Positions 18,286-62,661 of a stretch of DNA of 64,000 nucleotides are shown piece by piece. Numbering within the stretch: the first letter of the stretch is position 1; the number at the start of each line of letters is the position of its first letter. Made by a program: the position numbers and the translations under genes. The notes under the pieces are model-generated. The model had not been told where the DNA came from and did not search any database. It worked only from the letters and a program-made list of their open reading frames with translations. Source of the stretch: a virus; IMG/VR virus record IMGVR_UViG_3300027751_001020, positions 26,067-90,066 of that record; one strand, written 5' to 3'.

Positions 18286-19140
18286 TTGAAAGTAGTTTGG
18301 GTTTTAGAAAATATAGAAAAGAATAAGAACTTTTATAGTAAATTTAATATACTATTAATGCTCACATCAACTATCCTTTGGAAGAGAAATCATCCAGAGG
18401 ATATTTGTATTTTATATGCTGATGACATTACTATAGATTTTTTAGATAAATTAAAAGTATTAGAAATATGGGACCAGGTAAAACCTATCCCAAAAAGCGG
18501 AAGAATAAATAAATCAATATTCTGGGCTTCCTCTAAATTACAGGTTCTATCAGAAATAGAAGATCCTATTATCTTAATGGATAATGATACACATGTATAT
18601 AAACCAATAAAGGGTTTTCTAGACTTGAATAAGGTATACGTAACTAATTTAGAAATAGGAAAAGGGTACTACCCTACCTCCATAGACCCATATATACGTA
18701 AACTATCATATAAAAACAGATGGAAAACTGAATCTGTTAATGTTTCCTTTCTAAATTTACCTGACTCAGATTTTACTAGAAGGTACGCTAATGAGAGCCT
18801 TAAAATGATGGAAGAATTTACAGAAATGAAAGCCACTAACTCTCAATATTTAATTTTTGCAGAACAGCTTTTATTAAAACATATGCTTGATAAAGAGAAT
18901 GTAGCGTATAGAAGTATACTATCTACATATTGGGATTGTGCAAAATGGAATTGGGGTGAAATTCACAATAAGGGTATATGGAGCATAGAAGAATCAGAAA
19001 GGTACTTTAAACATTACGGACCGTTAAAAGGATGGTATATCAATAACAAGGACGGCCATGATTATGAGGAACATATTAAACACCTTTTAAACTGTATAAT
19101 GATACCTAATCTAGATTTAAAACTATTTAGCAAAAGATAA
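18286..19140 (+). CDS. Putative GT-A fold nucleotide-sugar transferase (DUF6734-like), TTG start
   Basis: IFWASSKL...IILMDND (DxD motif). Confidence 0.55.
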   Translation: MKVVWVLENIEKNKNFYSKFNILLMLTSTILWKRNHPEDICILYADDITIDFLDKLKVLEIWDQVKPIPKSGRINKSIFWASSKLQVLSEIEDPIILMDNDTHVYKPIKGFLDLNKVYVTNLEIGKGYYPTSIDPYIRKLSYKNRWKTESVNVSFLNLPDSDFTRRYANESLKMMEEFTEMKATNSQYLIFAEQLLLKHMLDKENVAYRSILSTYWDCAKWNWGEIHNKGIWSIEESERYFKHYGPLKGWYINNKDGHDYEEHIKHLLNCIMIPNLDLKLFSKR

Positions 19141-19144
19141 AAAA

Positions 19145-19918
19145 ATGTCTATAATTAATAATGAATTTGTAAGAACTCATATTACAAATAACAAAGTTAC
19201 AAAACAGGACGAAGACGGAAAAGAAACTTTAACTTTTACCCCAGTCCCCTTCAGGTGGACACACGGAGCAACCGAAAATCATTTAGGAGACGGATTACTA
19301 ATCTACACTATCATACAATTAATGAGGTATAAATCTGTAGTATGTTTAGGTTCCGGAGGCGGGTTTATTCCTCGCATTATGACCCAAGCTCGGTTAGATT
19401 TACATAAGCAAGGTATATTTGAAGGGAGTGATAGTTATAATTGGGGAGACATCGGTGCAACATATCTTGTTGATGCAGCTAACGGAGTAGGCGGTACACC
19501 GGACTATTTAGAAGATGATTCGTACTTTAGGTATCAATTTGCTCCTCGGTTTATAAAAGAAACTACAAAGGACGCATATTATAATTTTTTTGTTAAGCAA
19601 GATATAAAGATAGATTTTTTACATATCGATGCAGGACACTCTTACGCAGATGTCAAGCAAGATTTTGAATTATACTCTAAGTTACTATCATCTAATGGTA
19701 TGATAGCTATTCACGACACAGATGAGAAGTTTCAAAAAGAACTAATAATAACAGAAGACGAAAAACAACATTACGACTTATTTGATGGCCCACCTAAGTT
19801 TATAAAAGAAATTGGACCGGAATGGAAGCAGTTTAACTTTTTTAATACTGGGCAGGAAATAAATAAACCTTCTTCAACCGGTATTACATTACTTCAACGA
19901 GCAAAATGCCTAATCTAG
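19145..19918 (+). CDS. Class I SAM-dependent methyltransferase (Methyltransf_24-like)
   Basis: CLGSGGG and IDFLHIDAGHSYADVKQDF...GMIAIHD motifs. Confidence 0.85.
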   Translation: MSIINNEFVRTHITNNKVTKQDEDGKETLTFTPVPFRWTHGATENHLGDGLLIYTIIQLMRYKSVVCLGSGGGFIPRIMTQARLDLHKQGIFEGSDSYNWGDIGATYLVDAANGVGGTPDYLEDDSYFRYQFAPRFIKETTKDAYYNFFVKQDIKIDFLHIDAGHSYADVKQDFELYSKLLSSNGMIAIHDTDEKFQKELIITEDEKQHYDLFDGPPKFIKEIGPEWKQFNFFNTGQEINKPSSTGITLLQRAKCLI

Positions 19919-20745
19919 TTACAGTAGTTGGAGAGAATACACATATCTTACCTCATATGCTAAAACACTATGAAGATAAGGTAGATAAAGTATATGTAGT
20001 TGTATATAGACAATCCGATAGAGATGATATTTTAGAAAAGGTAGAGGATTTAGGAATCACACCATATAAAGTTGTAACCGAACCAAAATATAATTGGAAT
20101 AAAGTTACAGATTTATATAACGAAACTAAAAGAACCAAACCAAATGATTGGTGGATAGTATCAGATGATGATGAATTACAAATATACCCTGAACCGATCG
20201 AAGATATAATAGAGACATGTGAGAGAAACGATTATGACTTTGTCACAGGAGGTTTCTTGGATAGAATAGGTATAGATGGCACTTTTCCAATAGTGGACAG
20301 AGACACAAATCTACACAAAGCATTTCCTTTGGCTGGATTTTTTAGGTATCCAATGTCTGGGGCATGCCCAAACAAAGTAACTTTAATGAAAGGTTATCAA
20401 GATGTTACACCCGGACAGCACTACGCTCAATTTAAAGACGGTTCAAACAGTTGGGGGAAATCTCATCCAAAAAGAATGCCAATAGAAGAGGTATTTACCC
20501 AAGTACACCACTTTAAATGGGATTCTACATGTATTAGTAGAATTAAAAAAGTAGCAAACACTAATATGATGTATGCGTATTCTCAAGAATATAAGATAAT
20601 GTACGATGCAATTAAAGCTACAGAAGATAAAATAGATATAAAGAATAGTGAATATTTAGTTGAGAAACTAAAAGAAAGTTCATATATTGAATATATGGAT
20701 TATTCTAATTGGAATACCTTAATTAAAAAAATAGTTACAATATGA
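19906..20745 (+). CDS. Glycosyltransferase family 2-like (Glyco_tranf_2_4 type)
   Basis: ILPHMLKHY and WWIVSDDDEL motifs. Confidence 0.75.
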   Translation: MPNLVTVVGENTHILPHMLKHYEDKVDKVYVVVYRQSDRDDILEKVEDLGITPYKVVTEPKYNWNKVTDLYNETKRTKPNDWWIVSDDDELQIYPEPIEDIIETCERNDYDFVTGGFLDRIGIDGTFPIVDRDTNLHKAFPLAGFFRYPMSGACPNKVTLMKGYQDVTPGQHYAQFKDGSNSWGKSHPKRMPIEEVFTQVHHFKWDSTCISRIKKVANTNMMYAYSQEYKIMYDAIKATEDKIDIKNSEYLVEKLKESSYIEYMDYSNWNTLIKKIVTI

Positions 20746-20930
20746 GCACAAAAAAAGTGGAGACAAGTTTAGAAGAACGTCAAACTAAGGCGTTAGAAAC
20801 CATTGCAAGTTCATTAGATGCGCTAAGTTTATGGTTCGAAGAAATCGATAAAGACGAATGGGGAGAAAGAATTCAATACTATCTTTCTGAATTTCACGAA
20901 ATATTCGATCTGAGAAAAGAAAATGAGTAA
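20742..20930 (+). CDS. Small acidic helical hypothetical protein
   Basis: Overlap-coupled on both sides. Confidence 0.55.
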   Translation: MSTKKVETSLEERQTKALETIASSLDALSLWFEEIDKDEWGERIQYYLSEFHEIFDLRKENE

Positions 20931-22227
20931 ACTTGGAATTATAGTTCCATATAGGAATAGATATCAACATCTTGAAGCTTGGACTAGAGAAGTAAAACAT
21001 TATCTAGACAATCAAGGTATAAACTATAATATTATTGTAGTTGAACAAGACGATGCTACATCCTTTAATCGAGGAATGTTATGTAATATAGGATTTATAC
21101 ATGCTATAAAAAGAGGATGTACTTATGTTGTGTTTCATGATGTTGATATGGTTCCAGTTACAGTGGACTATACTCCAAATGATACTCCAATTCATTTATT
21201 TGATGACCAATTGCCTTTTGATAGCTATTTCGGAGGTATGACAATGTTTCCGGTTGAAGATTTTAAAAAAATAAACGGATTCTCTAATATGTACTGGGGC
21301 TGGGGATATGAAGATGACGATTTAAGGTACAGATGTGCTTTACATAATATAGATTTTGGCACACCTTATAAAACCTCAGAAGGAATTAGTAGAGACACCG
21401 CTATATTTAACGGTAAAAACTCAATCGCACGTATTCCCAATAACTTAAAATTTAGTACGGATTTTACTATAGAGATTTCTGGAAGGCTTGACCATGTAGA
21501 AATGGATCCAAAAAAAGTATTTGATCAGTACACTTTATTAAGTATAAGAGGAAATGAATTAAACATTACCTACAATTCTTTTAACAGATTCTCAGTGCAG
21601 CTTTTTGATAAAAGTTTTGATAAGTACACTATTAATTCAGATGTCTTTATTAACAGTGAATTTAATGTAAAACTACAATATGTAGCACGAACTAAAACAG
21701 TATCGTTATATGTAAACGATTCTTTAGAAGCTTCTACCACACTTAAAAACAGAATACTTGACTATAGTAAGCAATCGACAATTATTGTAGGAGCAGATTC
21801 AGAAGACACTAACCACTATCACGGTGCTATAGACAGTATAACACTATATACGAGAAAAGATGAAGTAGTTAACAGGTACTTAAAACCTAATAAAATAAAA
21901 TATATATGGGTTGACCATATAAGAAGAGATAAAGGAACATTAGATAATGTAGATGTAGCTCCATATGATGCACCTGAATCTACCGAAATAGACAGCACAG
22001 TACCTTATAGAAGAAAAGGAGACATATACAAACTTCCCCACCCGGATAACGGGTACGTAGAAGGAAGATGGAGAAGTGATTTAACTAGATGGAATCAATT
22101 AAGATATAATAACGAAGTAAAAAGAGGAGTTTATAATAACTCTAAAGACGGACTAAAAGACTGTGAATATATTCTACATAGTAAACAGTTTAAAGATAAA
22201 GTTTTACATTTAAATATAGGCATATAA
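20923..22227 (+). CDS. GT7 (beta-1,4-galactosyltransferase-like) with an inserted LamG/ConA domain
   Basis: VPYRNR, FNRGMLCNIG, FHDVD, YFGG, NGFSNMYWGWGYEDDDL; LamG-like segment FNGKNS...IVGAD...YHGAIDSI. Confidence 0.85.
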   Translation: MSKLGIIVPYRNRYQHLEAWTREVKHYLDNQGINYNIIVVEQDDATSFNRGMLCNIGFIHAIKRGCTYVVFHDVDMVPVTVDYTPNDTPIHLFDDQLPFDSYFGGMTMFPVEDFKKINGFSNMYWGWGYEDDDLRYRCALHNIDFGTPYKTSEGISRDTAIFNGKNSIARIPNNLKFSTDFTIEISGRLDHVEMDPKKVFDQYTLLSIRGNELNITYNSFNRFSVQLFDKSFDKYTINSDVFINSEFNVKLQYVARTKTVSLYVNDSLEASTTLKNRILDYSKQSTIIVGADSEDTNHYHGAIDSITLYTRKDEVVNRYLKPNKIKYIWVDHIRRDKGTLDNVDVAPYDAPESTEIDSTVPYRRKGDIYKLPHPDNGYVEGRWRSDLTRWNQLRYNNEVKRGVYNNSKDGLKDCEYILHSKQFKDKVLHLNIGI

Positions 22228-23639
22228 TGAAACATAAATTAGGAGTATGTGTACCATACAGAAACAGAGAAGAACACTTACACACCTTTATACCAAGAGT
22301 TGGGAGGTTTCTTAAAGAAAGAAATATAGATTTTCAAATTTATATATGCCATCAAGTAGACGAAAAACTTTTTAATAGAGGTGCAACTAAAAACATAGCT
22401 GCAAAACACGCTATTGAAGACGGATGTGACTACGTCGTTTTCCATGATATAGACATGATACCAGAAGACGGCGCAGATTATTCGTACCCTACAGAAGGTC
22501 CTCGCCATATTGCAACTCAAATTTCACAAATGGACTATCAATTAAAGTATCATGAGTACTTTGGAGGTGCAGTCTTATTTACTAAAGAACATTTAGAAGC
22601 CACAAACGGTTACTCTAACGGATATTGGGATTGGGGAATGGAAGATGATGATCTTTTTTGGAGATGTCACGAAGAAGGTTTAACATTAGATACATACTTA
22701 CAGAAAAAGACTAAACAAAAATACCTACGATATAATGGAGACAGTTCTTATAGTAAAGTTCCATTTACTAGAAAACTTAGAGGGTTAACTTCAAAATCAC
22801 ATACAATCTCAATACTGTGTCGAGCTTTTCAACAGCCAAATAAAAATAAAATTTTCTTAATAGGAGATAAGGATAATAAATACGTTGAGTACCCTATTCT
22901 AAGAATACCGGGGTATGACTACGGATTATCATTTAATAACTCAAGAGCACTTTCTCTCACATACTGGGATATGTTTAGTAACCACCACTACATGTGGGTG
23001 AAAAGATACGATAACCAATGGAGCTGGGTAACTGCGGTATTTAATGAAGAAACAAGAACCAGCCACTTATACCTAAACGGTACAGAAGTTGATTCCAAAG
23101 GAGGGTACGGAAGCCCTTCTCCCCTTAACTGGACCGGTAAATTAAAAAAATACGGCCCTAACGGAATATACATAGGCACTACACCATCTGTACCAGAAGA
23201 TAGTGGATACAGATACTTTAAAGGAGATATAGCAAAAGTGTTTGCTTGGGATAGAAACTTAACACCAGAAGAAGTCCAAGACTTACATTTAGATATTCCT
23301 ACCGATGGATTAGTGATTGACTCAGATTTTAACAGTCCCAATACCGAAATAGAAAGCTTCAATGTAGAATTAAGAGAGGAAGAGATAGACATTCCAAATT
23401 CAATTTTACCCTATAGAAAAGAAGGTAGATTTACATGTTTACCCCATATTGATGAAGGATTAGTAGACGGCAAATGGGCAAAAGGAGATACTACAGCAGC
23501 AAACGAAGAACGGTACGTTTTACAAATGCAACAAGGTAAGATCAATTATAAAGAAGATGGAATTACTACCTTAGAGTATACAGTAGAAAACGAAAACATT
23601 CTTACACCGTGGGCTAAAATGATTAATATAAAACTATGA
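22227..23639 (+). CDS. Second GT7 with an inserted LamG/ConA domain
   Basis: VPYRNR, FNRGA, FHDID, YFGG, NGYSNGYWDWGMEDDDL; LamG segment HLYLNG...YIG...FKGDIAKV..WDRNLT.EEV. Confidence 0.87.
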   Translation: MKHKLGVCVPYRNREEHLHTFIPRVGRFLKERNIDFQIYICHQVDEKLFNRGATKNIAAKHAIEDGCDYVVFHDIDMIPEDGADYSYPTEGPRHIATQISQMDYQLKYHEYFGGAVLFTKEHLEATNGYSNGYWDWGMEDDDLFWRCHEEGLTLDTYLQKKTKQKYLRYNGDSSYSKVPFTRKLRGLTSKSHTISILCRAFQQPNKNKIFLIGDKDNKYVEYPILRIPGYDYGLSFNNSRALSLTYWDMFSNHHYMWVKRYDNQWSWVTAVFNEETRTSHLYLNGTEVDSKGGYGSPSPLNWTGKLKKYGPNGIYIGTTPSVPEDSGYRYFKGDIAKVFAWDRNLTPEEVQDLHLDIPTDGLVIDSDFNSPNTEIESFNVELREEEIDIPNSILPYRKEGRFTCLPHIDEGLVDGKWAKGDTTAANEERYVLQMQQGKINYKEDGITTLEYTVENENILTPWAKMINIKL

Positions 23640-25033
23640 AACTACAGCAAGTAAAGGAAAAGTTAGATAAAGTAGGTTGTGGTTTTTGTTTAGCAAAATG
23701 GACCCAAGTTACTATACACTTAGGTCTTGGAATGACACACTCCTGTCACCATCCCTCTCCACATAAGATTTCACTAAAAGAGATTAAAAGAAATCCTTCT
23801 GCATTACATAATACGTCTTATAAAAAACAAAAACGTAAAGAGATGTTAGAAGGAAAAAGACCTCAAGAATGTAACTACTGTTGGAACGTAGAAGATAATT
23901 CTAACTCATTTTCAGATAGAACATTTAAATCTTCAGAACCTTGGTCATTAGACCAATACGATAAGATTGTGGAGTCACATTGGAGATCTGATTTTAACCC
24001 AAGGTATGTTGAAGTGTCGTTCTCTAATACATGTAATTTTAAATGTGCATATTGCGGACCACAGTATTCTTCAAAATGGGTAGAAGAAATAGAAAAAGAA
24101 GGGCCTTATCCAACCACTTATAACTTTAATGATATATCAAATTTAAAAGCTAAGGGAGAAATGCCTTATAAACATTCGGAAGAAAACCCATATGTAGAGG
24201 CATTTTGGAAATGGTGGCCAGATTTATTTAAAGATTTACATACCTTCAGAATTACAGGAGGGGAACCTCTTTTATCAAAAGATACATTTAAAGTATTAGA
24301 GTATATTCAAAAACATCATGATAAAAACTCCCAACTATCTTTATCCATTAACACAAATTTAGGGGTACCAGATGCACTAATTGATAAATTTATCGATATA
24401 GCTAAAGATTTATGTGAAAACGATAAAGTAAGAGAATTAACTTTATTTACATCTATTGAAGCAAAAGGAGCTCAAGCAGAATACACAAGATATGGATTAG
24501 ATTCAGAAAAATTTTGGTCTAATGTAGATAAAATTTTAACTGCCCTCCCAAAAGTAACCATTAACATTATGGCTACCTTTAACGCCCTGTCTGTCTTTAC
24601 ATATGATGAGGTAATAGATAGAACATTTGAGCTTAAAAAGAAACACGCTAATGGACAGAGATATTGGATATCTGCTTTACAGTTAGATACATCTTATCTG
24701 AGGTGGCCAGCTCATTTATCTGTAAAGATATTAGAACCAGACCACCATGAATTAATTTTGAAGTCTGCAGAAAAAATGCTATATTACGGTATAAAGGAGT
24801 TTACTACCGATAATTATGGATTCTCTAACGTAGAGATACAAAAAATGAAAAGAATCTACGATTATGCAACCGGTACGGATAGCTTTGAAACACATAAGTA
24901 CAGGACTGATTTTGTTAAATTTGTAGATGAATTAGATAAAAGAAGAGGTACCGATTTTAATAAAACATTTCCTGAATTAAATAACCTATATGATAGATAT
25001 AAGAAAAGGCTCGCCTTGGGTATTTTGGCCTAG
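23636..25033 (+). CDS. Radical SAM enzyme with N-terminal Twitch domain (#1, SCHH type)
   Basis: CLAKW...SCHH...CNYCW, then CNFKCAYC and ITGGEP. Confidence 0.9.
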   Translation: MKLQQVKEKLDKVGCGFCLAKWTQVTIHLGLGMTHSCHHPSPHKISLKEIKRNPSALHNTSYKKQKRKEMLEGKRPQECNYCWNVEDNSNSFSDRTFKSSEPWSLDQYDKIVESHWRSDFNPRYVEVSFSNTCNFKCAYCGPQYSSKWVEEIEKEGPYPTTYNFNDISNLKAKGEMPYKHSEENPYVEAFWKWWPDLFKDLHTFRITGGEPLLSKDTFKVLEYIQKHHDKNSQLSLSINTNLGVPDALIDKFIDIAKDLCENDKVRELTLFTSIEAKGAQAEYTRYGLDSEKFWSNVDKILTALPKVTINIMATFNALSVFTYDEVIDRTFELKKKHANGQRYWISALQLDTSYLRWPAHLSVKILEPDHHELILKSAEKMLYYGIKEFTTDNYGFSNVEIQKMKRIYDYATGTDSFETHKYRTDFVKFVDELDKRRGTDFNKTFPELNNLYDRYKKRLALGILA

Positions 25034-25574
25034 TAGCATATGTGATACATTTCCTGATAAACCTGCAAACAAGATACTATCTGGGCAACATTACTTTCAC
25101 CTTACCTTCAGACTTACATTAAAGGATAAATCAGACGATCAAAAAACCTTATTCACAATAGTACCGAGGTATACTGGTCTAGATTTATATAAGGATAAGA
25201 TGATACTCACAGTAACTTGCGAAGACGGTCCTATATATGTAGACTTACCTTTACTGGTTAACTATAACGAAGAGGTAATTATTTCATTAGAACACACTCC
25301 TAAAGGTAATTTTAGATTATTTATAGATAATAAGGTTGTCCACGAAGTAGATTTAAAGGACAAAATTTTTGGATTAGCAGATAGCCCGCACATATTAATA
25401 GGAGCAGGAAATTTTCCAAAGAATGATTTTAATTTAAACTATACAGATTTTGATCTACATGAGTTTATATTGAAAGATGAGAACGAAATTATATCTCATC
25501 ACAAATTTGAACAATTTATTTTTGATAAATCGGTAGATATTACCGGTAAATGTAATTTTATACACAAGTTATAA
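24990..25574 (+). CDS. Stand-alone LamG/ConA-like domain protein
   Basis: FRLFIDNK...ILIGAG...DLHEFIL beta-sandwich pattern. Confidence 0.5.
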   Translation: MIDIRKGSPWVFWPSSICDTFPDKPANKILSGQHYFHLTFRLTLKDKSDDQKTLFTIVPRYTGLDLYKDKMILTVTCEDGPIYVDLPLLVNYNEEVIISLEHTPKGNFRLFIDNKVVHEVDLKDKIFGLADSPHILIGAGNFPKNDFNLNYTDFDLHEFILKDENEIISHHKFEQFIFDKSVDITGKCNFIHKL

Positions 25575-27196
25575 TGGCAGGAGTTTTTGCAAAAAGAGAC
25601 GACGAAACGTTTCAGGAATACAGAGATAGAGTAGTAAACAAATTATCCGGCTCATTTTGTGGAGCTAAATGGTATAATGCAACAATCTGGTTAGGAAACG
25701 GAACTACCGCTTCCTGTCATCACCCACCTGCACATAAAATACCTCTAGAGGAAGTAGCTAAATCTTATAAAGCTATTCATAATACTACCTATAAAAAAGC
25801 AGTAAGAAAACAAATGATGGACGGAGTTCGTCCTAAAGAATGTGAATACTGCTGGAAGATAGAAGACTTAGGAGCAGATAAAGTATCAGATAGGGTTTAT
25901 AAATCTGTTATATATACAGACGAAGAACTCAAAGATGCTAAAGAGAAATTTGGAGCAGGCTTTGACGTTGATCTCAAGACATTAGAGATTGCTTTTGATG
26001 CTAACTGTAACTTTGGATGTTCATATTGTAATGCTTCTTTTTCTACTACTTGGCAAAAAGACATTAAGATGTTCGGACCTTACCAGAATCTAGTATCCGA
26101 TGGTGCAGGAGCATTTCAACATGATGGTAAACATGCAATGCCGTATGGTAGAAAAAATAAAGATAATCCATATGTTGAAGCTTTCTGGAAGTGGTGGGAA
26201 GCAGAGCTGCAGTACACCTTAAGAGAATTAAGAGTAACTGGAGGGGAACCTTCAATGTCGCCTGATTTTTGGAAGCTAATGGATTGGTGGAAAGATCATC
26301 CTGAATGTGAGGTACCTTTTGCTGTAAACTCTAACTTAGGACAGAAGACACAGCTACTTGATGCTTTAATTGATTCAACTCATAACTTCAAAGATTTTAG
26401 TATATATACGTCTAATGAGGCAACAGGGTTACAAGCAGAGTATATTAGATACGGATTAGAATGGGATGTATGGTTAAAGAATATTTACAGAGTTAATAGA
26501 GAAGCAAAAGTATCCTCTGTTAACGTTATGATGACTATTAATGCATTATGCTTATTCTCCATTACAGAATTTATGGATGAAATGTTAAAACTAAAAAAAG
26601 AGTTTGGACATCATGCCGCGGTAATGTCATTTAACATATTAAGATTTCCTTCTTTCCAGTCTATTGTCACACTTCCTGTTAACGTAAGGATGGAAAGAGC
26701 TGCACACATTGAAAAGTGGTTAGAAGCTAATTGGAATGGAGGCTCAAATGGTTTTATGGATATGGAAAGAGACGGGGTACTTAGACTTATTGAATATATT
26801 AAACAAGTAGATTCAGGACACGCTCATACCTCTTCATTAGAGTCTAGAGAAAGAGATTTTAAATCTTTTTACACTCAATATGATAAGAGAAGAAAGAAAG
26901 ATTTCTTAACTGCCTTTCCAATGTTAAAAGAATGGTGGGACAGTATTCCAGAAACAAATATCGAACTACTAAAAGGAGTTAGAGACGGAGACGATGCTAA
27001 ATCTAACAGGTATGTTCACGAAGTACTGAAAAAAGCAAAAGATGAAGGATGGGTACTGAACCCACAGTGGGCTAATCCTGGATCACAAGAGTATGTAGAA
27101 CCAGACGATCAACAACAAGATGATATGATTGACTTAGTTGAACAACTAAAAAAAGATTCAGATTCTAAATTTGTTGGAGGAGTAGCTAAAAGGTAA
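25574..27196 (+). CDS. Radical SAM enzyme with N-terminal Twitch domain (#2, SCHH type)
   Basis: CGAKW...SCHH...CEYCW, CNFGCSYC, VTGGEP. Confidence 0.9.
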   Translation: MAGVFAKRDDETFQEYRDRVVNKLSGSFCGAKWYNATIWLGNGTTASCHHPPAHKIPLEEVAKSYKAIHNTTYKKAVRKQMMDGVRPKECEYCWKIEDLGADKVSDRVYKSVIYTDEELKDAKEKFGAGFDVDLKTLEIAFDANCNFGCSYCNASFSTTWQKDIKMFGPYQNLVSDGAGAFQHDGKHAMPYGRKNKDNPYVEAFWKWWEAELQYTLRELRVTGGEPSMSPDFWKLMDWWKDHPECEVPFAVNSNLGQKTQLLDALIDSTHNFKDFSIYTSNEATGLQAEYIRYGLEWDVWLKNIYRVNREAKVSSVNVMMTINALCLFSITEFMDEMLKLKKEFGHHAAVMSFNILRFPSFQSIVTLPVNVRMERAAHIEKWLEANWNGGSNGFMDMERDGVLRLIEYIKQVDSGHAHTSSLESRERDFKSFYTQYDKRRKKDFLTAFPMLKEWWDSIPETNIELLKGVRDGDDAKSNRYVHEVLKKAKDEGWVLNPQWANPGSQEYVEPDDQQQDDMIDLVEQLKKDSDSKFVGGVAKR

Positions 27197-27198
27197 GC

Positions 27199-28536: not shown

Positions 28537-29744
28537 AAAGTAGTAAAAAGAGTAAGTCTATATGTGCACTACCGTGGCTACATTTAGCTACACATCCTAT
28601 AGGTACTATTACACCTTGCTGTATTACCGATATGAAAGATAGTGCTTCTACAGCAGCTACAGATCATGATGAAGCTCAGCACTTATTTCTTAGCAAAGAT
28701 TCGCTTGATTCAATAGCTAATTCAAAAAAGTTTAAAAAGCTACGTAAAGACATGATGAACGGAGAATTCTCCTCTTTATGTCAGAAATGTTACAAATACG
28801 AAGCTGCAGGTGTAGAATCTAAAAGGGAAGTTTCTAATAGGGAGTATGGGAAATACTTAGAAGAGTATATAAAAAACACTGATTCTACAGGACACATAAA
28901 AGATATAAATTATAGATACATAGAACTAAGACTAGGCTCAGTATGCAACTTGAAATGTGTCACATGTAACCCTTTTTCTTCAAACAGGTGGAACCAAGAT
29001 ATACATGTGTTTAAGGGTACTGAGTTTGAAAAAGAATATTTTAAAAACGAGATAAAAACAGAGTGGTATAGAGATTACGGATTTTACGATAACCTTCTCG
29101 ATAAGTGTAAGGACTTACAGGAAATTTGGATAAATGGAGGAGAGCCTACCTTAATTAAAGAACATGGGTACTTCTTACAAAAGCTTATAGATAATAACCA
29201 AGCAAAGGATATTAAAATTAGTTACAGTTTAAACAGTACAAAATTCCCGGACAGTTTTTTAGAGATATGGAAAAAATTTAAAAAGGTAAAGATACAAATC
29301 TCCATAGATGATATTGAAGATAGAAACCACTATGTACGATATCCATCAGACTGGAATACAATAATGACTGCTTTTACAAAAATTGCTAAATATAAAGATG
29401 TATTTGAGTTAGAGATATGCCAGACTGTTAGTGCTTTAAATGTTCATAATTTAAGTAACTTTAAAAACTTTTTTAAAGAATTCGGATTACTTTTTTCTCA
29501 CAACTACGTACATTATCCATCTCATTTACAGGTTTCGATCTTACCAGAAGAATTAAAACAACAGGTTTTAGAAAATAATTCAGATTTAACAGAGATGGAA
29601 ATAGATAGACTAAAATCTGAACTATATAAATCAGCTAGTCCAAAAGAATTAGATAAATTTAAATCCTATATTAATTTACTTGATAGAGCAAGAAATTTAA
29701 AAATACAAAATTACCTACCTGAGTGGGAACCTTATTTTAAATAA
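28521..29744 (+). CDS. Radical SAM enzyme with N-terminal Twitch domain (#4, CC type), GTG start
   Basis: CALPW...PCC...CQKC, CNLKCVTC, INGGEP. Confidence 0.9.
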   Translation: MEKHIESSKKSKSICALPWLHLATHPIGTITPCCITDMKDSASTAATDHDEAQHLFLSKDSLDSIANSKKFKKLRKDMMNGEFSSLCQKCYKYEAAGVESKREVSNREYGKYLEEYIKNTDSTGHIKDINYRYIELRLGSVCNLKCVTCNPFSSNRWNQDIHVFKGTEFEKEYFKNEIKTEWYRDYGFYDNLLDKCKDLQEIWINGGEPTLIKEHGYFLQKLIDNNQAKDIKISYSLNSTKFPDSFLEIWKKFKKVKIQISIDDIEDRNHYVRYPSDWNTIMTAFTKIAKYKDVFELEICQTVSALNVHNLSNFKNFFKEFGLLFSHNYVHYPSHLQVSILPEELKQQVLENNSDLTEMEIDRLKSELYKSASPKELDKFKSYINLLDRARNLKIQNYLPEWEPYFK

Positions 29745-29750
29745 AGAATT

Positions 29751-31013
29751 ATGAAAGACAGTAAAACATTATGCACAGCTCCGTGGATGCACTTACACAT
29801 AATTAACGATGGAAGAGCATATCCTTGCTGTATGACTGAAATTACTAACGAATTAGCAGTAGGTAATGTTAAAACTCAGACACTAAAGGAAGTAGTAAAC
29901 AGCCCTAAGATGAAAGAAATGAGAAAGGGAATGCTTGAAGGTAAACCTCTCCCAGCTTCCTGTGAAAGATGTAAAGGAAGGGAAGATGCTGGATTTAGTT
30001 CAATGAGAATAGGCATGAACAATAATTGGTACGATAAAGTAAAAGACCTAATAGAAAATACAAAACCAGACGGAGAAGTAACAAATTTAAGACTTCTATA
30101 TTGGGACATAAGATTTTCTAACTACTGTAATCTAGCTTGTAGAACCTGTTCTCCTACATTTTCAACTTCTTGGGCAAATGATTATATAAGATTAAGAGAC
30201 CATAATGATAATATTGAAACCGGTCTAATAAATTTAGATAATGAAACTAATTTCTGGAATGAGTTAGATGCCAATCTAGATGTAGCCCAAGAGATACACT
30301 TCGCCGGAGGAGAGCCCGTATTAATGCCGGAACATTGGAAGCTTATTAGCTTCTTAGAAGAGAACCAGAGGTTTGATACAAAATTAAAATATTCCACCAA
30401 TGCTACAAAATTAGTAGTTAAAGGTAGAAATATTATTGATGTATGGAAAAAATTTAAAAATGTACATTTAAGTCTATCTATAGACGGAACAGGCGATGTA
30501 TTCGAACTTACAAGACATAAAGGCAATTGGGAATCTACTAGAAATAATTTAATTGAGATTTCTAATAGCAATATAGAGTACTGGATACATCCTACCGTTA
30601 GTATATTAAACATTTTTAATATAGTAGAACTACATAAAGAGCTATTTGATTTAAATATTATTCCAAATGAAATAAGAGAATGTGAAGTAGGAAAATCCGG
30701 ATATAATAGTAATGATTACTTTATTAAAAGATTTCACATCAACCCTTGTGTGACCCCAGATATTTATTCAATAACCAATATACCTGAAAATCTAAAAGCA
30801 ATAGCTACACAGAAAATTAGAGAATACGCCAATACAAGTCTAAAAGAAAACGGGATACCGGTATCGGGTTGGGAATCGTTAATTAGTATTATGAATAGCC
30901 AACCATGTGATATGGAAGTATTCAGGAGATTTGTAGAGACTACTAAGAAATTAGACAAAATGAGAAATCAAAATTTTGTTGAAACGGTTCCTGAATTTAA
31001 ACCTTATTTTTAA
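29751..31013 (+). CDS. Radical SAM enzyme with N-terminal Twitch domain (#5, CC type)
   Basis: CTAPW...PCC...CERC, CNLACRTC, FAGGEP. Confidence 0.9.
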   Translation: MKDSKTLCTAPWMHLHIINDGRAYPCCMTEITNELAVGNVKTQTLKEVVNSPKMKEMRKGMLEGKPLPASCERCKGREDAGFSSMRIGMNNNWYDKVKDLIENTKPDGEVTNLRLLYWDIRFSNYCNLACRTCSPTFSTSWANDYIRLRDHNDNIETGLINLDNETNFWNELDANLDVAQEIHFAGGEPVLMPEHWKLISFLEENQRFDTKLKYSTNATKLVVKGRNIIDVWKKFKNVHLSLSIDGTGDVFELTRHKGNWESTRNNLIEISNSNIEYWIHPTVSILNIFNIVELHKELFDLNIIPNEIRECEVGKSGYNSNDYFIKRFHINPCVTPDIYSITNIPENLKAIATQKIREYANTSLKENGIPVSGWESLISIMNSQPCDMEVFRRFVETTKKLDKMRNQNFVETVPEFKPYF

Positions 31014-31014
31014 T

Positions 31015-31953
31015 ATGCACTACCTTTACGACTACTTATGGGAATCTCCAACTGAATTTGGAGTTAGAAATCTTTTAAGAAGAAACCACCTAGCTTATTA
31101 CACAGATGAAATAATAAAAAACTGTAATAAAACAGACCCAGGAGAGGTGTACAGTGTAAGGTACTTAGATGAGGAAGAAGAGGCTGAAACCCTTGCAGCT
31201 ATTAGTAAAAATACAACAGACCTAAAAGAAGGAGATGTATGTTATAACCTTGACCGTTTTGGACTAAGACATACAGGGGTGAACATACTTGAAGATGAAG
31301 TCGATACTTTAGTATTTGGATGTTCTTTTACATACGGAGTAGGAGTGCCATTGGAAAAAACATGGGCCTATAGTGTTAACACCCAAATTTTAGACAACCG
31401 ATACATTAACCTAGCTATACCGGGAAGCTCAATTTCTAAAATTACAAGACTTTTATATAGTATAGCTCAATTTAAAAAGCCAAAAAGAATTATTATACTG
31501 CTACCGGATTACAACCGGGAAGAAATAATTACCGAAAAAGATAGTAACGCAAGTAAAAAAGTACGTAATAATTTTGAAACTATAAATTTTGTCCCTAGGT
31601 ATCTACCTGAAAACCAAGAGGTAATGTACCATATTAAGAGGTACATGAACACACTAGTTACGGAAAATAACAAAGTCAATACATACAAAAATCTACAAAT
31701 TATTAAGTTTCTCACAGACCAGCTGAACATAAAGTTATACATCTCCAGCTGGTGCCCTTGGACTTACTCAACTTTAGAAAAAGTATTTGACACAACTCAA
31801 ATAGCACCATATTTTGAATTTAAAAATGATGCAAAAGATAACCTATATGCTAGAGATGGAGGACATCCAGGTTTGGTAGATAATAAAGAGTTTGCGAACG
31901 ACTTACTAAAGTTTATAACTAATAAAGAAAAGGTACACCACAATGTCATTTAA
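31015..31953 (+). CDS. SGNH-fold protein (possible O-acyl esterase/transferase); start revised to ATG 31015
   Basis: FGCSFT block I, NLAIPGSS block II, C-terminal DGGHP block V. Confidence 0.7.
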   Translation: MHYLYDYLWESPTEFGVRNLLRRNHLAYYTDEIIKNCNKTDPGEVYSVRYLDEEEEAETLAAISKNTTDLKEGDVCYNLDRFGLRHTGVNILEDEVDTLVFGCSFTYGVGVPLEKTWAYSVNTQILDNRYINLAIPGSSISKITRLLYSIAQFKKPKRIIILLPDYNREEIITEKDSNASKKVRNNFETINFVPRYLPENQEVMYHIKRYMNTLVTENNKVNTYKNLQIIKFLTDQLNIKLYISSWCPWTYSTLEKVFDTTQIAPYFEFKNDAKDNLYARDGGHPGLVDNKEFANDLLKFITNKEKVHHNVI

Positions 31954-33247
31954 TCATTACTTAGAAATAAACTATAACCAAGCTATAAATTTCGGTTTTG
32001 ATAAATTAAATACTAAACCAGACATCGGGTTTGTACACGGTAGTCCGATACTTGAAACTCTAGTCTTTAAAGAAAGCACATCGTACTTTATAGAAACTGG
32101 TAAAAAATTTATATACCCAATCTCAGGATTAAGTGAAACTATGTATATCTCTCCTGCTTTTTTATTAGAAAGCAATGTTATTGAAGCATGCAAGAATGGC
32201 CTGTGTAAAGTAGGTATAATGTACGATACAGAAGGAACAACATATCAGGACCGGTACCTTTTTTGGCTAGAAGAATTTGCAGAGTTAAATGAATTAGATG
32301 AAACTAACTTTTTTTTCGCACATGGGAATAGACAGTTAATACAAACCTATAGAGATTTTTTAATAAAGAAAAGAGAATTAAATCCTACGTTAGAAGTAAA
32401 ACCTAAAGTTGAGATTTTAAAATACTCTTATTTTGAAAATTTTCCTTGGTTTATTCCCGGTGATTATAAATTAAGAAAATCAAAAACTAAAGAGCAATTA
32501 TTAGAGCACTTCAATAAAATATTAACCAGGAACAGGGAAGAACAAAAAGTAAAGCATTTTTTATGTTTGAACAGAAGACCGAGACTAGGTAGAGTATTAA
32601 TATTTGGAGCTATTGAAACTAACCCTTATTTAAGAGATAAGACTATACTAACAATGGGTCCTCATGAACTTCCTGAGGGAACAGAGTTTCGACCGTTAAA
32701 AGCAATAGAAAGGAAATATATCCCATCTTGGATATATGATTATGTAGACTCATACGACTTTGAAAAACCCATACATGTAATAGATAATCCAGATAATAGT
32801 AATAAAGCACATGATATAAATCTTGAGTTTCACCAAAGTACATTTTTAAACGTTGTTACAGAAACACTATACAATAAAGAGATAATGTTTCTTTCGGAAA
32901 AAATATTTAAACCAATGTATATGCTACAACCTTTTGTAGTGATTGGAAATCCTAATACTTTAAAAGAACTTAAGCAACTTGGGTATAAAACTTTTGATAG
33001 ATGGTGGGATGAAAGTTACGATGAAGAAGAGGACTTGGTACAAAGAGTGTTAAAAGTAGAAATAATTTTAAATAAACTAAGTAAGTTAAGCTTTGAAGAA
33101 CTCTACAAAATTACTCAAGAAATGGAAGAAACATTAATACATAACTTTAACAGATTTCTATTTGAAAGTAAACAAGAAACATTAGATTATTTAAATTTTC
33201 TAACTTTTCAACAATATTTTGAAAAACTACCTCCATATCAATATTAA
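31943..33247 (+). CDS. Putative GT-B glycosyltransferase, distantly GT10-like
   Basis: FLCLNRRPR...FLNVVTETLY..FLSEKIFKP...PFVVIG...LKQLGYKTF. Confidence 0.5.
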   Translation: MSFNHYLEINYNQAINFGFDKLNTKPDIGFVHGSPILETLVFKESTSYFIETGKKFIYPISGLSETMYISPAFLLESNVIEACKNGLCKVGIMYDTEGTTYQDRYLFWLEEFAELNELDETNFFFAHGNRQLIQTYRDFLIKKRELNPTLEVKPKVEILKYSYFENFPWFIPGDYKLRKSKTKEQLLEHFNKILTRNREEQKVKHFLCLNRRPRLGRVLIFGAIETNPYLRDKTILTMGPHELPEGTEFRPLKAIERKYIPSWIYDYVDSYDFEKPIHVIDNPDNSNKAHDINLEFHQSTFLNVVTETLYNKEIMFLSEKIFKPMYMLQPFVVIGNPNTLKELKQLGYKTFDRWWDESYDEEEDLVQRVLKVEIILNKLSKLSFEELYKITQEMEETLIHNFNRFLFESKQETLDYLNFLTFQQYFEKLPPYQY

Positions 33248-34077
33248 TGAAAAGCAACCTTATAACCTTTGGATGTAGTTATACTAAATTTGATTGGCCA
33301 ACTTGGGCAGATTTTCTTAGTTCATATTACAGCACATATACAAATTATGGAAAAGCAGGATCAGGAAACAGAGCGATTTTTCATAAAATTATTAAATACC
33401 TAGATTCAAAAGAAAATTTTACACAAGATCAAGTTATAATTCAGTGGAGCAGCTGCGCTAGAGAAGACAAATACGATAAACATTCTAACCAGGAATATCT
33501 TTGCGCAGGAAATATTACTAATAATCCTTTCTATACCAAAGAATATGTAGATAAGTACTTTTCATTTCAACAAGACTTAGTAGAAACGGTAAATTACATA
33601 AAAACGGTAAAAGACCTACTTGAATATCATAACATTAAGTACTTAATGACTTTTATGTTAGATTTAAGGATAGGCACACATTTAGGAGAGCCGGGATTCA
33701 ACAGTAACTTTGAATACTTAACTGAGATAGAGTTAAATAAATGTAAACCTATATTTAAAAAACTTGACTATTTAGTTGATAATAATTTTACCGATTTATG
33801 TATTACTATGCACCAATTAGACTGCAGTGATAAAGTATACTGCTTCTCCCCTAAAGGAGAGGTAAACCCAGACTCTCACCCTAGTCCAAATCAGCATTAC
33901 AGTTTCATGGAGAAGTATTTACTCCCTAAACTAAAATACATACAGCAGAAAGAAACCCCGGTATCTATCAGTCTATTAAAAGACTGGAATAATTTTGCTA
34001 AAATTAAAAAAAATTTAGAAGATAAGTTAGAGTATAAACCTTCAACCTGGCCTACTAAAACTACAATGAACTTTTAA
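33247..34077 (+). CDS. Second SGNH-fold protein
   Basis: FGCSYT, NYGKAGSGN, PDSHP motifs. Confidence 0.68.
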   Translation: MKSNLITFGCSYTKFDWPTWADFLSSYYSTYTNYGKAGSGNRAIFHKIIKYLDSKENFTQDQVIIQWSSCAREDKYDKHSNQEYLCAGNITNNPFYTKEYVDKYFSFQQDLVETVNYIKTVKDLLEYHNIKYLMTFMLDLRIGTHLGEPGFNSNFEYLTEIELNKCKPIFKKLDYLVDNNFTDLCITMHQLDCSDKVYCFSPKGEVNPDSHPSPNQHYSFMEKYLLPKLKYIQQKETPVSISLLKDWNNFAKIKKNLEDKLEYKPSTWPTKTTMNF

Positions 34078-34085
34078 CAGTGCTC

Positions 34086-34093
34086 TATTTATA
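34086..34093 (+). promoter_or_regulatory. Putative late promoter TATTTATA
   Basis: 18 nt before the dehydrogenase ATG. Confidence 0.55.
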
Positions 34094-34111
34094 AAAATAA
34101 TAAATGTTAGT

Positions 34112-35275
34112 ATGAAAATAGGCTTTATAGGAGTTGGAAAACTCGGAAAAGATGCTGCCGAAGTAATGGCAGAAAAACACGACGTTATAGGTTACGATGT
34201 AACAAAAGTTGAACCGGAAAACTTTAATATGGTAGAAACCATAGGAGAAGTTTGTAAAGGTAGAGAAATGATATTTATAGCGGTTCCAACACCTCACGAT
34301 CCTGCCTATGATGGTAGGTATCCAACAGCACATTTACCAAACAAAGACTTTAACTACCAGATTGTAAAAGACGTACTTACTGAAACAAACAAGTATGTTA
34401 CAAAAGATCAATTAGTAGTTTTAATCTCAACTGTACTACCAGGAACAATTAGAAGAGAGTTTATAGATTTAATTCCTAACGGAAGATTTATCTACAATCC
34501 TTATTTAATTGCAATGGGTACAGTTAAATGGGATATGGTTAATCCTGAGATGGTTATTATTGGAACTGAAGACGGTTCAATGACCGGAGATGCTAAGATG
34601 TTACTCGATTTTTACAAAACGTTTATCACAGAAGGTACACGGTATGAAGTAGGAACTTGGGATGAAGCAGAAGGTATTAAAATATTTTACAATACATTTA
34701 TTTCTACAAAAGTAACTTTAGTTAACATGATACAAGATGTTGCCGAAAAAGGAGGTAATATGAATGTAGACGTAGTAACAGGAGCATTAGAAAGATCCAC
34801 ATACCGTATACTCGGTAAAGCTTATATGACAGCAGGTATGGGAGATGGAGGAGGATGCCACCCAAGGGACAATATCGCCTTACGTCATATGGCAGAAAAG
34901 TTAGGTTTAGGGTATGATTTATTTGATGCAATAATGAATGCTAGAGAGAAACAAGCTAAAAATCTTGCAGAGACTTTAGTTAAACACGCTCAAGAAAATT
35001 CCCTACCTATAACAATACTCGGTAAATCTTATAAACCGGATGTACACTACGAAGACGGTTCTACAACTATACTAACAGGTTATTTCTGTGAAGAATTAGG
35101 AATAAAACCTGAATTTGATTTAGAAGTTCCAAATAAGGCAGTTTATTTATTAGGACATATGGGTAAATTTCATGAATACCGGTTTCCTGAAGGCTCTATA
35201 GTTATCGATCCATGGAGAGCATATAAATCAGATAAAGTTAAAGTAATACATTACGGAAACACCCGACTGGGATGA
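34112..35275 (+). CDS. ugd: UDP-glucose/GDP-mannose dehydrogenase family enzyme
   Basis: GFIGVGKLG, FIAVPTP, STVLPGT, YNPY, GGGCHPRD (catalytic Cys), LGKSYKP. Confidence 0.88.
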   Translation: MKIGFIGVGKLGKDAAEVMAEKHDVIGYDVTKVEPENFNMVETIGEVCKGREMIFIAVPTPHDPAYDGRYPTAHLPNKDFNYQIVKDVLTETNKYVTKDQLVVLISTVLPGTIRREFIDLIPNGRFIYNPYLIAMGTVKWDMVNPEMVIIGTEDGSMTGDAKMLLDFYKTFITEGTRYEVGTWDEAEGIKIFYNTFISTKVTLVNMIQDVAEKGGNMNVDVVTGALERSTYRILGKAYMTAGMGDGGGCHPRDNIALRHMAEKLGLGYDLFDAIMNAREKQAKNLAETLVKHAQENSLPITILGKSYKPDVHYEDGSTTILTGYFCEELGIKPEFDLEVPNKAVYLLGHMGKFHEYRFPEGSIVIDPWRAYKSDKVKVIHYGNTRLG

Positions 35276-35916
35276 AAGCAGTAATACTTTCAGGATATTT
35301 AGAAAACCTATCAGACAATATTAAATCCGTTTTAGATCTTAAAACAGATATGTTTGTACATACCTGGAAAACCAAAGAGAATGAAAGATGGGTAAAAAAG
35401 CTACAGAGGTATAATAAATTTTGTAACTCAATTAATATTATTGAAGAAGAACCTAAATTCGAAAAAAAATTATATTCTTATGTATATTCAACTTGGCGAG
35501 CTGTAAACTTGATCACAGAAATTGAACAGTATACATCTATTTTAAAATTCAAACCTAATCTAGATACATATAACATAGAGTATAAAGGAAACTTAGAATT
35601 TTACTTTCAAAAAGCTTCTATACAATCTAGACCATTACTACAGGGGATTAAAAAAGAAGAATGTTTTTACGGGTCAATTTACTACCAAACTATGGATGAA
35701 AGAATGTTCTCTGGGTATCCGTTGGGATTTAGGAAAGTATTTCATACATTGTATAAAGAGTTTCACCTAAATATGGTTAACTTAGACAACCAATTATCTT
35801 TAAAGTACGGTAATGACTACGAAGGTAGTATTTTTTGGAAGGAGTGGTTTGAGAGTAAAGGAATAAAACTAATACAAGATTTAGATTTAAAAATACCTAA
35901 TAACAGACAGTTATGA
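35272..35916 (+). CDS. Hypothetical glycosyltransferase-like protein
   Basis: KAVILSG...DMFVHTW pattern seen in sugar-transferase-like folds; ATGA-coupled to ugd. Confidence 0.45.
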   Translation: MKAVILSGYLENLSDNIKSVLDLKTDMFVHTWKTKENERWVKKLQRYNKFCNSINIIEEEPKFEKKLYSYVYSTWRAVNLITEIEQYTSILKFKPNLDTYNIEYKGNLEFYFQKASIQSRPLLQGIKKEECFYGSIYYQTMDERMFSGYPLGFRKVFHTLYKEFHLNMVNLDNQLSLKYGNDYEGSIFWKEWFESKGIKLIQDLDLKIPNNRQL

Positions 35917-61706: not shown

Positions 61707-61748
61707 CCCTATTTATATTAAATAAGTTTTATACCAATCGTTTTTTAA

Positions 61749-61756
61749 TATTTATA
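61749..61756 (+). promoter_or_regulatory. TATTTATA motif (another copy at 61710-61717)
   Basis: 19 nt before a small hydrophobic ORF. Confidence 0.45.
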
Positions 61757-61775
61757 CGCAAAACGTTTCTACAAT

Positions 61776-61832
61776 ATGAAATTTATATTATTTATAGTAG
61801 GTTTTATAGTTACTATGTCAGCTATTGGGTAG
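61776..61832 (+). CDS. Candidate 18-aa hydrophobic peptide MKFILFIVGFIVTMSAIG
   Basis: Promoter motif upstream and terminator hairpin overlapping the stop. Confidence 0.4.
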   Translation: MKFILFIVGFIVTMSAIG

Positions 61833-61856
61833 GTAAATTACCGCCCAAATTTTTTT
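61825..61856 (+). terminator. Terminator-like hairpin
   Basis: TTGGGT-A-GGT-AAATT-ACC-GCCCAA followed by a T7 run. Confidence 0.6.
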
Positions 61857-62005
61857 CATCACCGATGTACGGAGATAAAACCCACTTCTCCGGTACCGTA
61901 GTCCCTTATAGGTTTTTCCAATTTTACCCCCTTTGTAGTTTATATTTCAAAAATAAGTTCATATATTAAGTTATATGTTATGTAGTATGAATTAACGAAT
62001 AAATT

Positions 62006-62191: not shown

Positions 62192-62224
62192 TTGGAATAA
62201 CGAAAGATTCTTCTTATATTTATA
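62192..62224 (+). promoter_or_regulatory. Promoter TTG-N20-TATATTTA overlapping TATTTATA
   Basis: GTTGGAATAACGAAAGATTCTTCTTATATTTATA. Confidence 0.6.
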
Positions 62225-62242
62225 GAAATAAAACAGTTATAT

Positions 62243-62649: not shown

Positions 62650-62661
62650 AAATCAAAATAA

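Follow-up and report, generated by a model that had tools for sequence, protein, structure and literature searches.

A fibre-linked island of putative glycosyltransferases and N-terminal-twitch radical SAM enzymes in an uncultured marine relative of Flavobacterium phage immuto

We analysed a 64,000-nucleotide stretch of viral DNA, here called the window, which comprises bases 26067-90066 of a 104-kb IMG/VR virus record (IMGVR_UViG_3300027751_001020) judged to be 63% complete. Between the fibre genes and the tail sheath gene, the window carries a 17.6-kb island (18286-35916) of 17 genes, g1 to g17, all of them open reading frames (ORFs) on the plus strand. The island encodes, among others, two putative GT7-type glycosyltransferases with an inserted LamG domain (GT7-LamG) and five radical S-adenosylmethionine (SAM) enzymes with an N-terminal twitch domain (N_Twi). 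A preliminary description made from this DNA had read the island as a self-contained cytoplasmic pathway for an unusual glycan, most plausibly carried on the virion fibres. The sheath protein of the window phage shares 67% identity with its counterpart in Flavobacterium phage vB_FspM_immuto, and the two phages are syntenic in the flanking structural genes; the source is an uncultured marine phage related to immuto, with a backbone of the virulent myovirus type. Immuto, the nearest isolate, has different fibres and lacks the island. A homolog of g18, a gene initially counted as part of the island, sits directly before the immuto sheath gene, and g18 is therefore a backbone gene rather than an island gene. 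Window DNA was found in at least 13 marine metagenome runs, and the island was intact in independent marine metagenomes. A nucleotide search with the island against GenBank phages gave no match, and at least 272 confirmed relatives of g6 were found in IMG/VR.

Three fibre-module genes, F948, F183 and F234, lie immediately upstream of the island (Table 1). We compared gene order in 80 loci fetched through g6 and, in a separate search with an F183 profile, in 57 loci with sufficient downstream sequence. The order F948-F183-F234-g1-g2-g3-g4-g5-g6-g7 was conserved in the g6-found loci. From the F183 side, 56 of the 57 loci carried F234 and g1 to g6, and 53 of them also g7, so that the core genes kept their place behind the fibre genes rather than being scattered among relatives. 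Moreover, g1 tracked F183 exactly (46 loci with both and 7 with neither, the latter representing only two or three independent lineages). Almost every related locus had F948 ahead of the island (tblastn matches in 56 of 81). The exception among the 57 F183-found loci was L210, an IMG/VR contig of 121,930 bases (G001) whose structural proteins are 75-92% identical to those of the window. There, about 32 kb of the window (3507-35912, with all fibre genes and the island) is replaced by one F183-like gene, and the whole contig contains no S74 fibre, GT7-LamG or N_Twi enzyme. This gap may be genuine, the segment having been lost or swapped, or it may come from a collapsed assembly.

The hairpin between F234 and g1 is the strongest terminator-like site of the region and had been taken to bound an island operon. 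The structure itself is present as described, but relatives do not share it: of 28 related loci, 20 have a spacing of just 15-25 nt between F234 and g1, with no hairpin, which ruled it out as a conserved operon boundary. Because the hairpin is peculiar to this phage and the two genes are so closely spaced in most relatives, we regard the island rather as the last part of the fibre operon. Together, the gene order kept in 56 of 57 loci, the short F234-g1 spacing and the joint absence of fibre genes and island from a close relative support a link between the island and the fibre genes that is both physical and evolutionary.

Within the island, the 15 genes g1 to g15 (18286-34077) are as tightly packed as first described, with successive gaps of 4, -13, -4, -8, -1, -4, -44, -1, 2, -16, 6, -38, -11 and -1 nt (range -44 to +6). 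Genes g16 and g17 form a second unit behind a copy of the motif TATTTATA. The total count of this motif was within chance (18 against 13.1 +/- 3.7); its plus-strand copies were concentrated in the intergenic 5% of the window (14 of 16, against 0.6 expected with shuffled spacers). Most copies lie 24-38 nt upstream of a start codon. Sheath, tube and baseplate genes are among those preceded in this way, but so is the gene for the ribonucleotide reductase (RNR) small subunit, and we therefore regard TATTTATA as a general phage promoter-like motif. It does precede both the g16-g17 unit and structural genes, as the preliminary description had noted, but it also stands before RNR and other non-structural genes, so that a strictly late or structural promoter is unsupported. 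Four copies (61710, 61749, 61789 and 62217) fall in 61707-62661, 955 nt without an ORF of at least 100 amino acids (aa), which may be a regulatory or origin region.

Table 1. Features of the fibre module and the island, in window coordinates
Feature	Assignment	Coordinates	Strand	Basis or remark
F948	Tail fibre with C-terminal Peptidase_S74 intramolecular chaperone	14115..16961	+	Pfam PF13884, E 1.8e-14
F183	Acidic protein, 183 aa	16971..17522	+	Own alignment; co-occurs with g1
F234	Ser/Thr-rich protein (30%)	17524..18228	+	Orthologs about 150 aa
Hairpin	Between F234 and g1, followed by ATATATTTAAATTAATAA	18240..18268	+	12-bp stem, 5 G-C pairs
g1	DUF6734; possible GT-A/GT8-like transferase	18286..19140	+	Pfam PF20508, 38.7 bits
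g2	Class I SAM methyltransferase (Methyltransf_24)	19145..19918	+	Pfam PF13578, 43.2 bits
g3	GT2-like (GT-A) glycosyltransferase	19906..20745	+	PF13704; invariant DDDE
g4	Small helical protein, 58-82 aa	20742..20930	+	Present in 77/81 loci
g5	Putative GT7 (B4GalT-like) with inserted LamG	20923..22227	+	Pfam; fast-evolving paralog, median identity 34%
g6	Putative GT7 (B4GalT-like) with inserted LamG/pentraxin-like domain	22227..23639	+	Pfam, AlphaFold2; listed as most conserved island gene, median identity 68%
g7	Core N-terminal-twitch radical SAM	23636..25033	+	NF033640, 341.8 bits
g8	Free LamG-like protein	24990..25574	+	hhalign to LamG part of g5/g6, 95%, E 3.1e-8
g9	N_Twi radical SAM	25574..27196	+	NF033640, 312.5 bits
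g10	N_Twi radical SAM	27199..28536	+	NF033640, 312.8 bits
g11	N_Twi radical SAM	28521..29744	+	NF033640, 346.2 bits
g12	N_Twi radical SAM	29751..31013	+	NF033640, 370.9 bits
g13	SGNH-like motifs only (GCS, G, RDGxHP)	30976..31953	+	Alignment
g14	GT-B fold glycosyltransferase-like, virus-only family	31943..33247	+	AlphaFold2 pLDDT 83.6
g15	Distant g13 paralog	33247..34077	+	Alignment
TATTTATA	Promoter-like motif	34086..34093	+	26 nt before g16
g16	Nucleotide-sugar 6-dehydrogenase (UDPG_MGDP_dh family)	34112..35275	+	Pfam PF03721, PF00984
g17	Conserved 214-aa protein	35272..35916	+	ORF

Conservation differed sharply along the island. Median identities among relatives were 72% for g3, 68% for g6, 66% for g4 and 34% for g5, compared with 66% for the tail sheath, and 71 of 81 loci had g7 with an identity of at least 50%. 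After g6, islands carried between 0 and 6 radical SAM genes, and 34 loci showed 17 different layouts. Adjacency revealed cassettes within this variable part: g7-g8 (40/40 loci), g8-g9 (20/20) and g12-g13 (9/9) were always neighbours, and g10-g11 were adjacent in 9 of the 10 loci that held both. This arrangement of a conserved inner and a shuffled outer part resembles, by analogy, glycan gene clusters under diversifying selection.

The products of g5 and g6 combine the Pfam domains Glyco_transf_7N and Glyco_transf_7C (75.0 and 70.9 bits for g5, 72.4 and 72.2 bits for g6; cut-offs 27 and 23) with Laminin_G_3. A g5/g6 profile matched animal B4GalT1 and B4GalT7 in the PDB (E 2e-45), and the DxD, YFGG and WGxEDDD motifs aligned residue for residue with both enzymes (against B4GalT1, HDIDM with SDVDL and YWDWGMEDDD with YWGWGGEDDD). 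Seven residues of the GT7 domain (D74, D76, W136, G137, E139, D140 and D141) were invariant among 43 sequences. The AlphaFold2 model of g6 (predicted local distance difference test, pLDDT, 91) matched B4GalT structures in Foldseek at E 6e-14, with a root-mean-square deviation of 1.3-2.3 Å over 152-158 columns and 35-37% identity, a match confined to the N-terminal 155 residues. In the model, a LamG/pentraxin-like insert of about 220 residues comes next and precedes the C-terminal segment of the enzyme. Thus, while g5 and g6 share fold and motifs with the animal galactosyltransferases over about 155 residues, they differ from them in the LamG insert and in having no membrane anchor. All ESM Atlas clusters with the GT7-LamG architecture were viral. 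From profile and model, g5 and g6 are putative glycosyltransferases of the CAZy GT7/B4GalT family. The free LamG protein g8 is a paralog of their insert.

All five radical SAM proteins (g7 and g9 to g12) are full-length members of NCBIfam family NF033640 (N_Twi_rSAM), with scores of 312-371 bits against a curated cut-off of 170 bits. The CX3CX2C motif (C133, C137, C140) was invariant in 37 sequences, as were C18, C37, C79 and C82. The Pfam SPASM match lies at residues 8-91, N-terminal to the Radical_SAM match. The only solved enzyme to which sequence links the family is BtrN, which the twitch part matches weakly; in BtrN, the nearest solved twitch enzyme, the twitch domain is C-terminal, whereas the island enzymes carry a four-Cys twitch domain at the N-terminus. 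In addition, g11 gave a partial match to a mycofactocin maturase (E 8e-9). PHROGs offered nothing for the island proteins beyond 'radical SAM', and a literature search for NF033640 found no paper that names the family. Its members have no known reaction, and g7 and g9 to g12 might oxidise, epimerise or deoxygenate sugars or form C-C/C-X bonds on them. Radical SAM genes also occur away from the island. Two lie outside the window (G000 90594-91619 and about 94356), and the segment 49033-50452, among replication genes (a PolA fragment, gp32-like, RecA-like, exonuclease and DnaB), holds a short SDR-like ORF and, overlapping it, the gene of a 299-aa radical SAM protein that has an ordinary SPASM domain at its C-terminus and no relation to the family of the island.

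Outside these phages, orthologs of g7 with 40-47% identity were concentrated in predatory Bdellovibrionota, including an isolate and megabase contigs. Around 68 such loci the recurrent neighbours were a protein of about 310 aa (30 loci), an ABC transporter ATPase (18), GT4 enzymes (15), ABC-2 membrane parts (14), other radical SAM proteins (11) and carbamoyltransferases (8). The ~310-aa protein was considered as a relative of an island protein and rejected, hhalign finding no relation. These clusters thus share g7-like enzymes, glycosyltransferases and further N_Twi enzymes with the island, and have carbamoyltransferases as well, but GT2 or GT4 enzymes take the place of GT7-LamG, ABC-2 genes are often present and a fibre gene rarely is. 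On the chromosome of Bdellovibrio sp. HCB2-146 (L140 1959-17395), the g7 ortholog lies between a 1,965-aa phage-like S74 fibre and four GT2 genes, and the locus also holds a second N_Twi enzyme. The contexts of the g7 family favour a carbohydrate as the likely substrate and are silent on whether the glycan of the phage is destined for virion or host. Proteins like g12 also occur as tandem N_Twi triplets in two very large phage-like contigs (L098 and L099; 524 and 439 kb), where a ~3,500-aa protein and several consecutive proteins of ~300 aa come before them, with a carbamoyltransferase, an FG-GAP protein and an S74 fibre nearby.

The remaining island genes were assigned with varying success. 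The methyltransferase g2, the GT2-like g3 and the nucleotide-sugar dehydrogenase g16 could be upheld as first named, as could the two GT7-LamG enzymes, the free LamG protein and the five radical SAM enzymes. While g3 itself falls below the cut-off of Glyco_tranf_2_4 (PF13704), 25 of 25 orthologs match that family, and mean column identity is 77%. Both Pfam domains of g16 score above their cut-offs (PF03721, 50.1 bits against 27; PF00984, 59.7 bits against 25.4); NCBIfam does not assign its substrate, TIGR03026 reaching 135.8 bits against a cut-off of 189.8 and the equivalogs lying far below theirs. The reading of g1 as a GT-A enzyme with a DxD motif was borne out only in part: D99-x-D101 is invariant in the ortholog alignment, but the family is DUF6734, an Atlas lead to GT8 reached only 0.92, and the GT-A/GT8 assignment is no more than possible. 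Similarly, g14 has a clear GT-B fold, with Foldseek and VIA matches to GT-B enzymes at Z 10-11.8, but the GT10 label proposed for it is one of several ties: an alpha-1,3-fucosyltransferase (5zoi, Z 11.7), 6eji (11.8), T4 BGT (11.2) and many GT4 enzymes match about equally, no Pfam family and hence no Glyco_transf_10 was found, and the Atlas lead to GT10 reached only 0.77-0.78.

The two SGNH labels given to g13 and g15 were not reproduced. Neither protein matched a Pfam, NCBIfam or PHROG family, none of 13 orthologs matched the SGNH profile at E 0.1, and a PDB profile search gave E 0.22 to a GDSL protein in block I only. G-C-S, one Gly and H-P are invariant in these proteins; the block III Asn is not evident. 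PDB profile searches with g1, g3, g14, g13/g15 and g17 returned no significant match, and g17 likewise matched no family of known function in Pfam, NCBIfam or PHROG. In the small protein g4, a conserved middle with invariant E19, W31, E33, K37, W40, R43 and Y47 is followed by a variable tail. A role as carrier protein or as precursor of a ribosomally synthesised and post-translationally modified peptide was ruled out, since g4 has no conserved Ser and its C-terminus is variable.

Among the fibre-module proteins, F183 showed no Pfam match, and F234 orthologs contain 24-32.5% Ser+Thr. F234 of the window phage carries about 85 extra C-terminal residues, Ser/Thr-rich and ending in Cys, and a similar extension was seen only in locus L062. 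Farther upstream, 6632-12556 encodes a 1,974-aa fibre-like protein that contains 26% Ser+Thr and no Cys and matches a bactofilin-like repeat close to the C-terminus.

In none of the island proteins did the hydrophobicity of a 19-residue segment exceed 1.6; all look soluble, as expected from the cytoplasmic location that had been proposed. The Pfam scan of the island found no initiating phosphoglycosyltransferase, flippase, polymerase, exporter or membrane protein. With no membrane segment and no exporter or initiator detected, the enzymes therefore probably act in the cytoplasm, where the acceptor would be soluble or a protein, or else a lipid-linked intermediate of the host. The gene content supports the multi-enzyme glycan pathway of the preliminary description, with no fewer than five proteins of glycosyltransferase type, one methyltransferase, one sugar dehydrogenase and the five radical SAM enzymes, and the product of the island is likely a glycan that the island both builds and tailors. 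The claim that this pathway is self-contained was not sustained: no initiating transferase was identified in the island, and no nucleotide-sugar gene but g16.

We tentatively hypothesize that a cytoplasmic pathway linked to the fibre operon builds and edits a glycan for which a virion fibre protein is the acceptor, a reading that we find plausible without calling it probable. The inner set (g1, g2, g3, g4, g5, g6 and g7, with g8) would build a conserved core structure, and the outer set (g9, g10-g11, g12-g13, g14, g15, g16 and g17) would diversify the glycan between phage lineages, much as O-antigens vary, with g16 supplying a uronic acid. The acceptor would most likely be a virion protein of the fibre module (F948, F183 or F234). 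Addition would take place in the cytoplasm before or during assembly, and the LamG domains may help to hold the acceptor. A bolder version, possible and rather doubtful, is that uncultured aquatic phages of a large, worldwide group O-glycosylate their own tail fibres in the cytoplasm with an N-acetyllactosamine (LacNAc)-like core made by the B4GalT-type enzymes, and that the N_Twi enzymes then rewrite its sugars into a combinatorial virion code. Such rewriting might consist of epimerisation, oxidation, deoxygenation or cross-linking, and might affect host range or protect the fibres.

Several observations weigh against a glycan on the fibres. No protein-initiating glycosyltransferase was identified in the island, and GT7 enzymes normally extend sugars rather than proteins. 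The Ser/Thr richness of F234 is generic, 21-30% being common to all fibre-like proteins here. One related island contains no radical SAM gene at all. The Bdellovibrionota context of g7 looks like that of an exported polysaccharide and fits an action on the host surface equally well; only 3 of about 70 such loci have an S74 fibre 10 kb or less from the g7 ortholog, and the HCB2-146 locus is therefore an anecdote. A protein search with g6 through 50,697 GenBank phage records found no relative, and hence no island-bearing isolate. One marine metatranscriptome library contained short contigs identical to F234, g1, g5 and g14, which are compatible with transcription of the island; they may also stem from DNA carry-over. 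For g1 with F183 and F234, complex prediction gave a score of 0.00, which is no answer and not evidence either way.

A gene elsewhere in the window was considered as the missing initiator and rejected. The polypeptide-GlcNAc-transferase-like PF11397 gene at 57655 does not follow the island in its distribution: two near-complete genomes with the island lack it, and the island-less relative has it. Its product (500 aa, E 7.6e-78) is followed, up to 61706, by two HtrL_YibB-family proteins that adjoin the RNR genes. Pfam describes PF11397 by way of an enzyme that starts hydroxyproline glycosylation of Skp1 in Dictyostelium. Distant homologs of the protein lie inside the island in L086, L087 and L104, and the nearest homologs in isolates, in Xanthomonas and Stenotrophomonas jumbo phages, are 44-50% identical.

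The strongest competitor, unlikely and still to be taken seriously, is remodelling of the host surface. Here, the soluble enzymes would act at the cytoplasmic face on host lipid-linked precursors of O-antigen, capsule or O-glycan, and a host exporter would carry the altered glycan out, thereby excluding other phages or stopping progeny from sticking to debris. GT7 enzymes extend sugar acceptors, and the g7 orthologs of Bdellovibrionota, with GT4, ABC-2 and carbamoyltransferase genes, sit in surroundings typical of ABC-transporter-dependent polysaccharide clusters. Moreover, this is the published reading of a comparable system, the host-recognition cluster (HRC) of pelagimyophages and cyanomyophages, whose glycosyltransferase and radical SAM cassettes, with GT8 as the main family, were read as host O-chain modification genes (Zaragoza-Solas et al. 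2020, PMC7029224). The pelagimyophage HRC, likewise known from genes alone in uncultured marine myophages, shares with the island a hypervariable region, tail fibres, several glycosyltransferases, a UDP-glucose 6-dehydrogenase and add-on radical SAM cassettes (PMC7029224). The two differ in that HRC phages have a T4-like backbone while the phage studied here is immuto-like in its sheath (67% identical), and GT7-LamG, the N-terminal-twitch family, the conserved core and the cassette structure are not described in PMC7029224. Against host-surface remodelling, the island lacks the initiating, flipping, polymerising, exporting and membrane functions listed above; no Pfam family of lipid-linked surface-polysaccharide clusters and no transmembrane-like segment was found in it. 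The packing of the island against the fibre genes in most relatives suggests one transcription unit, and the two are lost together. In addition, the core genes are conserved like structural genes, and the backbone is that of a virulent myovirus.

An improbable alternative keeps the fibres as substrate and changes the chemistry: the radical SAM enzymes would modify fibre proteins by cross-links, epimerised residues or formylglycine, as SPASM/twitch peptide maturases or the anaerobic sulfatase maturase do, with LamG serving substrate recognition and the glycosyltransferases working in parallel. Most characterised SPASM/twitch enzymes do act on peptides, the LamG protein g8 always follows g7, and the island adjoins fibre genes. 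However, the island offers no precursor-like peptide, g4 being conserved in its middle and variable in its tail, and in cellular genomes it is glycosyltransferases and carbamoyltransferases, not peptide-maturation genes, that recur beside the family. The weak link in structure-derived sequence to BtrN also points away from peptides, as BtrN acts on a sugar-like substrate.

Less probable again is a free or cofactor-like glycoside, a small molecule of aminoglycoside or mycofactocin type with no macromolecule decorated. Aminoglycoside pathways contain glycosyltransferases alongside BtrN-type twitch enzymes, and mycofactocin combines a radical SAM/SPASM enzyme with a GT2 enzyme and a methyltransferase; the partial match of g11 to a mycofactocin maturase would fit. 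On the other hand, the island contains no cyclase, aminotransferase, precursor peptide, peptidase or exporter, its linkage to the fibre genes is fixed, and the LamG inserts point to a macromolecular acceptor.

DNA hypermodification, in which the transferases would glycosylate a modified base and the other enzymes tailor the glycan, is the weakest alternative and very improbable: DNA can receive multi-sugar glycans from phage glycosyltransferases (Pyle et al. 2024, as cited in PMC12619734) and T4 beta- and alpha-glucosyltransferases are among the tied matches of g14, but the 104 kb of this 63%-complete record hold no homolog of a thymidylate-synthase-type hydroxymethylase, a phage QueC gene hints at another route, by way of 7-deazaguanine, the island stands with the structural and fibre genes and apart from those for replication, and GT7-LamG is unlike known DNA glycosyltransferases. 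The QueC homolog (63119-63913, E 3e-37) hints at 7-deazaguanine metabolism or DNA modification, and no TGT/DpdA homolog was found in the 104 kb.

A glycan on the virion itself has precedents. Chloroviruses and mimiviruses glycosylate their capsid or fibrils with a multi-enzyme pathway of their own, including methyltransferases, that is independent of host membranes. To our knowledge, this machinery, which belongs to eukaryotic giant viruses, uses different enzyme families and involves no radical SAM tailoring. Mycobacteriophages, as summarised in PMC12619734, glycosylate capsid and tail-tube subunits with their own transferases (Freeman et al. 2023), and they share with the present proposal soluble phage glycosyltransferase genes beside structural genes and a cytoplasmic decoration of virion proteins. 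In the window, too, glycosyltransferase genes adjoin structural genes and are apparently co-transcribed with them. The mycobacteriophage systems have few transferase genes, and their acceptors are the C-termini of the capsid and tail-tube subunits. We know of no radical SAM, GT7 or LamG protein in them.

Virion glycosylation by virus-encoded enzymes is established for giant viruses and a few mycobacteriophages, and not for abundant marine or freshwater phages. The island is widespread, its core is as conserved as the tail sheath, and it is fused to genes that decide host range. The NF033640 enzymes, in tandem cassettes beside glycosyltransferases, are good candidates for new radical carbohydrate chemistry, and the phage-only GT7-LamG proteins may serve enzymology as soluble relatives of the animal galactosyltransferases. 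If the reading with a LacNAc-like core were true, it would provide the first radical SAM editing of a protein-linked glycan and give NF033640 its first function. Glycosylated fibres would call for a revision of models of adsorption, of the prediction of host range from fibre sequence and of ideas on the stability of aquatic phages.

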